Source of the DNA: an uncultured bacterium
Lineage (GTDB): Bacteria; Gemmatimonadota; Gemmatimonadetes; Gemmatimonadales; Gemmatimonadaceae
Reading direction: 5' to 3'
DNA length: 13,070 nt
NCBI GenBank assembly: GCA_963978095.1
Contig: CAXBQP010000066.1
Span: forward strand, 1 to 13,070
The position numbers and the translations under genes are program-made. Shown here piece after piece: positions 8,053-8,139 of this stretch. The notes under the pieces are model-generated. The model searched no databases. It was not told the origin of the DNA and was given only the letters and a program-made list of their open reading frames with translations. Each line of letters begins with the position of its first letter. Position 1 is the first letter of the stretch.

Positions 8053-8060
8053 GGAGGTGA
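8053..8060 (+). promoter_or_regulatory. Strong Shine-Dalgarno sequence
   Basis: GGAGGTGA, 7 nt upstream of ATG 8068. Confidence 0.8.
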
Positions 8061-8067
8061 ATCTCAA

Positions 8068-8139
8068 ATGGCCCTTCTGGCGATGTTGATCATGAAGTTG
8101 TTCTCGTTTGTGCTGGGTGACGCAGTGACTTGGACCTGA
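8068..8139 (+). CDS. Unannotated 23-aa hydrophobic peptide MALLAMLIMKLFSFVLGDAVTWT
   Basis: ATG 8068 to TGA 8137-8139, with a near-perfect SD at optimal spacing. It fills the intergenic gap and is below the ORF-track length cutoff. Confidence 0.75.
   Translation: MALLAMLIMKLFSFVLGDAVTWT

Follow-up and report, generated by a model that had tools for sequence, protein, structure and literature searches.

A conserved hydrophobic micropeptide gene enclosed by a long-range leader helix upstream of a MASE9/HD-GYP phosphodiesterase gene in Gemmatimonadota

Short leader open reading frames (ORFs) that act as attenuators or are coupled to a downstream gene are exemplified by trpL and the pyrBI leader of Escherichia coli, and small membrane regulators or subunits by MgrB-PhoQ, KdpF, AcrZ and CydX. 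Here, we analyze a locus that resembles both. It lies in a 13,070-nt stretch of DNA from an uncultured member of the Gemmatimonadaceae (GenBank assembly GCA_963978095.1, contig CAXBQP010000066.1, positions 1 to 13,070, forward strand), which we call the window. A short ORF (sORF) of 23 codons is found directly upstream of a gene encoding a membrane cyclic di-GMP (c-di-GMP) phosphodiesterase with MASE9 and HD-GYP domains. Judged by comparison of related sequences, the sORF is a micro-gene conserved throughout the phylum and predicted to specify a hydrophobic peptide with a Trp-containing tail. It is located inside a structured RNA of approximately 225 nt (7935-8161) whose two ends pair in a long-range helix that we call P1. 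No described family in Rfam, Pfam or NCBIfam matches the RNA or the peptide, and the element is undescribed in the full-text literature searched, supplementary files aside.

The likeness to trpL and the pyrBI leader lies in the short leader ORF and in the proposed scheme, where the position of the ribosome relative to a helix and a U-rich tract would decide downstream expression. The present locus differs in that it has no run of a regulatory codon, and its helix is long-range and encloses the whole ORF. Moreover, the downstream gene encodes a signaling enzyme rather than a biosynthetic operon, and the peptide appears to be selected for hydrophobicity. With MgrB, KdpF, AcrZ and CydX the locus shares a hydrophobic product of fewer than 50 residues encoded beside a presumed partner, and contact with a membrane domain is predicted here with weak support. 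There is no homology to these proteins, however, and the peptide is shorter, acidic or neutral, and embedded in a structured RNA that would couple it to the next gene. The hok and aapA1 mRNAs and the dual-function RNAs (RNAIII/delta-haemolysin, SgrS/SgrT and VcdRP) share a small hydrophobic ORF, a highly folded and apparently stable short RNA and a hidden Shine-Dalgarno (SD) sequence with the element. Unlike them, it is single-copy and strictly syntenic with one gene across the phylum, and no antisense partner or base-pairing target is known (no target search was made). TnaC and PepNL are likewise reported to be encoded by very short upstream ORFs, with conserved residues whose spacing from the stop codon is constant (PMC11890864); there is no sequence likeness to the peptide described here, for which all three stop codons are used and the N-terminal part is hydrophobic throughout the family. 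Finally, a Clostridioides difficile locus in the c-di-GMP network is reported to have a structured leader with premature termination before a small membrane-protein gene (PMC13724677). That leader is a class I c-di-GMP riboswitch, whereas ours has no Rfam match, and our sORF precedes a c-di-GMP phosphodiesterase gene and resides inside the closing helix.

A previous reading of the window from its letters alone (the sequence-only reading) had proposed the SD, a 7-nt spacer, the ATG and the encoded peptide, and every coordinate and translation is exact. The spacer is ATCTCAA (8061-8067, + strand), the start codon occupies 8068-8070 and the TGA stop 8137-8139. An in-frame ATG at 8050 would yield a 29-residue version of the peptide; it overlaps the SD, and the closest relative reads ACG at this position. 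The same reading called this SD the strongest in the window; it is the context, and not the octamer, that is unusual. With up to one mismatch, GGAGGTGA has 11 matches in the window compared with 12.3 ± 3.5 in shuffled sequences, and three exact copies are found on the + strand (8053, 10891 and 11923), so the octamer alone is within chance. The copy at 8053 stands out because an SD-like sequence precedes the presumed start in none of six long genes of the window (0/6), and because the arrangement is conserved in relatives. The other two copies (10891-10898 and 11923-11930) oppose the STAND-type NTPase gene (9529-12696, − strand, 1055 residues), as checked against ORFs of at least 60 residues. 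Genome-wide, SD-like words form a weak peak at −11, with 135 occurrences over a background of approximately 55 in 4711 crudely called long ORFs.

Similar sORFs are found directly 5′ of the HD-GYP gene in relatives, over a range of HD-GYP identities from 76% to approximately 37% (tblastn and ORF listing of loci around HD-GYP orthologs in 41 genomes). A DNA pattern drawn from the leader only, which combined the SD block with two AGCG motifs and excluded the ORF entirely, was scanned against 185,579 species genomes and gave at least 120 stretches, with 80 loci among the matches listed. Fifty-six of these 80 are titled Gemmatimonadota, Gemmatimonadales, Gemmatimonadaceae or Longimicrobiales. A short ORF starts 2-5 nt after the SD block in 51 of the 56, and in the remaining five the contig ends 14-97 nt past the match. 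The 24 loci with other titles, again among the matches listed, include three with the full module (L026, L031 and L069) and 21 that resemble chance matches. The pooled set used below comprises 63 loci, 49 from the scan with space for a downstream gene and 14 from the relatives, which contain 61 distinct sORFs.

These 61 sORFs begin 2-5 nt past the near-invariant SD block in all cases but one (60/61). ATG is the start codon in 53, GTG in six and TTG in two; the stop codons are TAG (26), TAA (20) and TGA (15). The peptides are 15 to 37 residues long, most commonly 23-24, and the hydrophobic part is followed by 5-7 residues. Trp is the last residue in 19 peptides and the penultimate residue in 34 (53/61 together), and an acidic residue is found four positions before it in 34 and five positions before it in eight. 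The G-D-x-x-x-W-x tail singled out in the sequence-only reading is a real family motif. The conservation that this reading proposed to test upstream of HD-GYP orthologs extends across the phylum for the SD, start codon, frame and terminal or penultimate Trp. An independent set obtained with a leader sequence model gives a similar picture: 28 of 34 loci have the SD and an sORF, 21 of these 28 end in W or Wx, and an HD-GYP gene is found downstream in 27, while the 28th has just 315 nt past the stop codon. These 28 include one locus (L159) from G086, a genome flagged unpublished. Searches of the 23- and 29-residue peptides detect no Pfam family at E values up to 10, and the best NCBIfam match reaches 14.2 bits against a cut-off of 32.

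The frame has a clear coding signature. The second codon position is 41% T over the 61 sORFs, and the grand average of hydropathy (GRAVY) is +1.04 in frame, whereas the other two frames score −0.14 and −0.03 and are interrupted by 74 and 46 stop codons. For 12 disjoint pairs of equal length, differences at codon positions 1, 2 and 3 number 72, 47 and 94, and the codon changes comprise 47 synonymous and 97 non-synonymous. The codon changes point to selection on hydrophobicity and the tail, not on most single residues. Of the seven changed codons listed for the pair of the own genome (G000) and G020, three are synonymous and four are replacements, all of the latter before the shared FSFVLGDAVTWT. 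Phylum-wide retention of the hydrophobic character, together with the conserved tail, makes it very likely that selection acts on the peptide as a product. Two loci, L021 (G032) and L019 (G026), have HD-GYP matches with an internal stop codon (one TAG and one TGA), and the L021 sORF frame overruns the usual Trp-stop position. At these loci, the genes for the peptide and for the enzyme may be degenerating in parallel.

The leader and the MASE9 gene largely occur together. Among 151 genomes of the phylum, the leader model matches 87, nearly always in one copy, and a MASE9 profile built from the orthologs matches 90. When the tables were compared by hand, 78 genomes have both, nine only the leader, 12 only MASE9 and 52 neither; these tallies and the set of 41 genomes include genomes flagged unpublished (G006 and G086). 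In at least five of the nine leader-only genomes, the match is located at a contig end. Ten of the 12 MASE9-only loci were inspected, and nine of them carry an SD and a Trp-ended sORF that the model, which uses sequence only, had missed. These rescued loci come from other families and classes, some with much lower G+C. P1 is found by script in eight of the nine, starting 3-7 nt after the stop codon; for the ninth (L178), the script chose another helix and the matching P1 is seen only by eye. Two genomes contain second leader copies, and these also reside 5′ of HD-GYP paralogs. In the genome of origin, the leader hidden Markov model has one match, and a scan for an SD followed by a short ORF ending in [D/E]xxxW identifies this sORF as the only hydrophobic one.

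The conservation of the intergenic DNA extends well past the ORF borders, and the RNA it would encode is closed by P1. Six nucleotides separate the sORF stop codon from the 3′ strand of P1, and 10 nt separate the end of that strand from the HD-GYP ATG. Other lineages form the helix from strands that are fully different in sequence yet complementary (GGCTGACACCCG/CGGGTGTCAGCC, GAAGGGCCCCCG/CGGGGGCCCTTC, TGACCCCCTTC/GAAGGGGGTCA and GCCCTTCTGT/ACAGAAGGGC); a further lineage helix, GATACG(G)ACCCCCGG/CCGGGGGTCGTATC, was read by eye from the flanks. Over 60 loci, cognate 5′ and 3′ flanks pair with a mean of −40.7 kcal/mol, compared with −30.4 kcal/mol for non-cognate flanks. Over the 8 nt that adjoin the C-run/G-run core on its inner side, cognate combinations pair at 5.95 of eight positions and non-cognate ones at 4.21 (20 distinct sequences). 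None of 5000 permutations reaches the observed value, though relatedness inflates tests of this kind, and P1 is better supported by the occurrence of fully different helices in other classes. The counts were anchored and permuted by script; the MAFFT alignment (A7) is gapped beside the 3′ anchor and out of register there.

The position of P1 relative to the two genes is also maintained. The median distance from the sORF stop codon to the 3′ strand is 9 nt, and in 45 of 63 loci it does not exceed 12 nt. Measured from the stop codon, the HD-GYP ATG is 22-47 nt downstream at 52 of 63 loci (median 33 nt); measured from the end of P1, it is 3-21 nt downstream at 43 of 63. SD-like words are present before the HD-GYP ATG at four of 61 loci and missing from the other 57. 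The 12 nt past P1 contain a mean of 7.9 pyrimidines over a background of 5.8, and at least five T residues are found in this interval in 21 of 57 loci, compared with 9% of background 12-mers. The leader or attenuator peptide that the sequence-only reading offered as an alternative fits the RNA in these respects: P1, the pyrimidine tract and the HD-GYP start without an SD. Within the fold of the window, the tract TTCTCCTTTCT (8154-8164) pairs with the SD-like GAGGAGA (7935-7941); the tract also resembles the pyrimidine-rich 3′ tail of 16S rRNA. Approximately 40 nt upstream, GGACCCCCGAACTCGGCGAGG (7908-7928) resembles the region of the P1 5′ strand, ACCCCCGACTCCGGCAGAG (7949-7967), and could be a partial duplicate serving as an alternative 5′ strand.

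Inside P1, repeated AGCG(G/A) motifs are conserved, and AGCGG(A) is found partly in loops. An invariant block follows: AGCGGAGC is identical in all 61 sequences of alignment A4, and the invariant GAGCGGAGC corresponds to 7994-8002 in the window. Consensus and single-sequence folds pair this block with GGU..CGC of the SD block, which reads G(A/G)GGTGACGC and is near-invariant across the family. The hairpin directly 5′ of the SD covaries in 29 sequences, with pair 27:55 formed by AU in 15 and GC in 11, and pair 30:52 by UA in 10, CG in six, GC in five and UG in five. The SD is largely paired, with a mean unpaired probability of 0.29 over 57 folded elements. The covariance model of A4 carries no base pairs, as RNAalifold found no consensus over the two leader types, and it served as a sequence model. 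An Rfam cmscan of the whole window on both strands, at E values up to 1, has no matches, c-di-GMP riboswitches included. ARAGORN finds no tRNA or transfer-messenger RNA (tmRNA) genes in the window. A tmRNA or 6S RNA, suggested by paired ends around an internal short ORF, was considered and rejected: neither ARAGORN nor Rfam reports a match, the SD and start codon are canonical, and the frame has a hydrophobic coding signature. No sigma-70 promoter site is detected in 7000-9700 (0.4 expected), and neither sigma-54 −24/−12 nor −35/−10 boxes are convincing by eye 5′ of P1. The leader contains several GGA repeats, one of them within the SD, and the genome encodes a CsrA homolog (G000 contig C2:71902-72057, + strand, PF02599, 69.4 bits). 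The invariant 9-nt block is longer than CsrA sites and differs from them, and we regard CsrA as a minor possibility.

RNA from the element is present in metatranscriptomes. Two runs from different studies contain the stretch, each with one contig on 6900-9700, at 7972-8150 (179 nt) and 7960-8151 (192 nt), and neither has a contig on the flanking genes; by comparison, the region is covered in full by two DNA runs. The stops coincide with the end of a weak local hairpin (8135-8151). Contigs give no ends, strand or expression level, and stops that coincide between two studies are graded as a weak hint. We take the coverage as evidence of greater RNA accumulation from the element than from the neighboring genes. 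The pattern fits termination or processing at P1, or merely a stable leader.

Features of the window that bear on the element, with the basis for each assignment
Feature	Position	Strand	Basis or remark
Sigma-54 activator gene	5184-6959		Pfam
Syntenic upstream gene, 270 aa	7075-7887	+	No Pfam or NCBIfam family
P1 5′ strand: GAGGAGA (7935-7941) and ACCCCCGAC (7949-7957)	7935-7957	+	Minimum-energy fold
Two AGCG-type repeats, AGAGCGAAGC and TGAGCGGGCC	7964-7983	+	Conserved blocks in alignments A1, A4 and A7
Invariant block GAGCGGAGCC, then AACC	7994-8007	+	Predicted partner of the SD block
Hairpin directly 5′ of the SD	8014-8043	+	Fold; stem covaries in 29 relatives
SD, GGAGGTGA	8053-8060	+	Read from the sequence
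sORF, 23 codons and TGA, predicted peptide MALLAMLIMKLFSFVLGDAVTWT	8068-8139	+	Sequence, family conservation, coding signature
P1 3′ strand: GTCGGGGGT and TCTCCTT	8146-8161	+	Minimum-energy fold
Pyrimidine-rich tract, no SD	8154-8171	+	Between P1 and the HD-GYP start
MASE9 and HD-GYP (HD_5) membrane c-di-GMP phosphodiesterase gene	8172-9527	+	Pfam
STAND-type NTPase gene	9529-12696	−	Pfam

The product of the downstream gene matches HD_5 (E = 1.5e-32), HD (3.4e-20) and MASE9 (4.7e-9) in Pfam, and the HD and GYP motifs are visible in its translation. On the other side of the element, 50 of 63 loci have the gene for a 270-residue protein, which terminates with a conserved ...AVLDATNRW motif. The closest look-alikes in a protein atlas are unnamed Gemmatimonadota clusters. 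An AlphaFold model has two domains (mean predicted local distance difference test (pLDDT) 82.6), of which the C-terminal one, a twofold β-β-β-α arrangement, resembles the amino-acid-binding regulatory domain of LeuA and citramalate synthase in Foldseek (E = 1.7e-4 to 7e-4; template modeling score 0.52-0.54 on a target of 121-125 residues). On the strength of this modeled fold, the protein may be a small-molecule-sensing partner of the module. In DNA run X3, a contig of a related population swaps 105 nt within this gene (7376-7482) for 90 other letters; the exchanged stretch corresponds to a low-confidence linker of the model (residues ~101-137). The upstream gene usually ends approximately 50-260 nt before the leader, whereas in one family (L014, L016, L022, L028, L049, L061, L071, L079 and L098) the distance is approximately 775-860 nt. 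The extra DNA of this family holds a further ORF that appears receiver-domain-like by eye.

We also modeled contact between the peptide and MASE9. The window peptide falls under the 30-residue minimum of the prediction, and for this reason a natural 37-residue family member (L069) was combined with residues 1-225 of the HD-GYP protein from the same locus, using alignments of 53 rows each. The complex scores 0.54, compared with 0.01 for the best of three controls, which the procedure grades as weak support; at least 88% of contacts recur between runs, and the partner pLDDT is at least 60. The mark is reached by 116 of 157 solved complexes and by two of 215 mismatched pairs, but at 0.60 or below by just 18 of the solved complexes and by both passing mismatches. 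The model therefore lends weak support to binding of the peptide to MASE9, raising its odds a little. In the study that defined MASE9, ligand binding by this domain is argued to take place inside the membrane, and the only member studied is reported to have been poorly expressed (10.1101/2021.11.05.467447).

Conservation, coding signature, P1 covariation, geometry, gene co-occurrence and the presence of RNA in libraries were all computed directly. We favor a mechanism in which these features reflect a translated membrane micropeptide whose translation would open P1, so that the enzyme is made with the peptide, which would then act on MASE9; we consider this proposal an even call. A cis role for sORF translation is suggested by the enclosing helix, the stop codon just before its 3′ strand, the downstream start without an SD and the short RNA. 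If the sORF were untranslated, P1 would form and either end the transcript or mask the HD-GYP start, and such closure would leave the short RNA seen in metatranscriptomes. A ribosome at the sORF stop codon would instead cover the first bases of the P1 3′ strand with its footprint, a median of 9 nt downstream. With P1 kept open, the HD-GYP gene would be transcribed through, or initiated, or both, and the enzyme would be produced only together with the peptide. The released peptide would enter the membrane and dock on MASE9, where it would serve the phosphodiesterase as an accessory subunit or as a ligand within the membrane. A bolder form of this proposal makes the peptide the cognate intramembrane ligand or subunit of MASE9, giving a peptide-gated phosphodiesterase hard-wired by a ribosome-opened "giant-loop" terminator or masking helix of approximately 200 nt; we regard it as possible but doubtful.

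Several observations weigh against the favored mechanism. The terminal Trp is missing from eight of the 61 peptides, and non-synonymous codon changes outnumber synonymous ones. The longest stretch free of D, E, K and R is 13 residues at the median, with 18 or more in only four of 61, so a classical transmembrane helix would not fit in most peptides, which are too short or interrupted too often. The predicted complex is weak by its own calibration and concerns the 37-residue relative rather than the 23-residue window peptide. The pairing of the SD with the invariant block has both sides invariant and is therefore without covariation either way. P1 has a loop of approximately 190 nt, unlike known intrinsic terminators, and only the 21 post-P1 tails mentioned above are clearly T-rich. 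The RNA contigs stop within the 3′ strand of P1, not after it, and leave ends and strand undefined. Lastly, we infer translation of the sORF itself, and P1 opening, termination or masking, and binding of the peptide to MASE9 are proposed steps.

The same features could also belong to a purely cis-acting leader, in which a ribosome placed or stalled at the sORF stop codon would control the choice between terminator and anti-terminator or unmask the HD-GYP start. The [D/E]xxxW tail would then be a nascent-chain signal that slows termination, and the released peptide would be functionless. The spacing between the conserved residues and the stop codon is indeed constant, whereas the N-terminal part differs in length, as in stop-codon arrest peptides, and the close spacing of P1 to the stop codon and the lack of an SD at the HD-GYP start would suit such a device. 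Short stop-codon arrest peptides that regulate a downstream gene exist, for example, the 14-residue PepNL (PMC11890864). What makes this explanation unlikely in our view is that hydrophobicity of the N-terminal part is kept phylum-wide, although a tail acting in the tunnel would not need it. In addition, all three stop codons are used, in contrast to the UGA-dependent PepNL, and regulatory codons do not form a run: only three of 61 peptides contain WW, and the window peptide has a single Trp codon, in its tail. The predicted complex also provides weak support for a partner in trans. A free-standing dual-function RNA would encode a membrane-active or regulatory micropeptide and have targets elsewhere, with the proximity to HD-GYP due to shared regulation only. 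Its attraction is that the RNA contigs from both studies cover the element and not the HD-GYP gene, that the AGCGG(A) motifs are conserved, and that the GGA repeats could bind a protein such as the encoded CsrA homolog; dual-function RNAs with peptides of 15-50 residues are an established class (PMC12612679, PMC12310071). The linkage to MASE9 is strict, however, with both present in 78 genomes and most exceptions explained, and second copies precede HD-GYP paralogs. The short interval between the P1 3′ strand and the HD-GYP start further argues for coupling in cis, and we find this explanation distinctly improbable.

The type I toxin-like membrane peptide offered in the sequence-only reading fares unevenly. 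Such an mRNA would be kept inert by 5′-3′ pairing and a hidden SD and be controlled by an unseen antisense RNA, and the element does have a small hydrophobic product, long-range 5′-3′ pairing, a largely paired SD and a short RNA that appears stable; the mRNAs of hok and aapA1 show comparable fold-back pairing. A toxin of this type is nonetheless very improbable. The element is present once in its own genome and in nearly all 87 positive genomes, rather than patchily in many copies, with synteny and vertical conservation across the classes of the phylum. The net charge is zero or negative in 54 of 61 peptides, and the 7000-9700 promoter scan, which included the antisense direction, found no site. 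A hydrophobic product of fewer than 50 residues encoded beside the same presumed partner across taxa is a feature that the element shares with small membrane-protein partners of sensors. The comparison does not support the pheromone precursor favored by the sequence-only reading. An exported peptide sensed from outside by the adjacent MASE9 receptor would account for a peptide gene beside a membrane sensor, which is the usual layout of peptide signaling, as well as for the conserved Trp tail and the weakly predicted contact. The peptides have no basic N-region of the signal-peptide type (K or R among the first five residues in 8/61), though, and their acidic or neutral charge and tail of just 5-7 residues are also unfavorable. 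Pfam detects no exporter, protease or modifying enzyme among the 14 ORFs of the window scanned, and the bacteria concerned are diderm; we therefore hold export to be very unlikely. Hardly tenable, finally, is a non-coding RNA with an incidental open frame. The region is clearly a conserved structured RNA, and frames of at least 15 codons are common at the 66% G+C of this DNA. Yet the start codon is found at a fixed distance from an 8-nt SD, the product is hydrophobic in this frame only, differences concentrate at the third codon position, and Trp and the stop codon are kept while nucleotides and length vary.

MASE9 is an orphan membrane sensor domain, and among c-di-GMP hydrolases those of the HD-GYP type are understood least. 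A micropeptide that is conserved and encoded alongside is a concrete, testable candidate for what MASE9 senses or needs, and if the bolder form of the proposal is true, it would be the first partner assigned to any MASE9 domain. In that case, a ribosome that opens a helix by finishing the frame of the ligand itself would be an RNA device of a new kind, and the accumulating short RNA would be a ligand-only message that lets the cell set the ratio of peptide to enzyme. In the locus, a covarying long-range helix encloses a reading frame and directly adjoins the start of the next gene, which makes it a clean natural case of this arrangement. In a phylum that makes little use of SD sequences, it is a useful model of leader translation controlling a downstream gene. 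It is also a conserved gene, present in most sampled members of the phylum, that gene callers appear to overlook.

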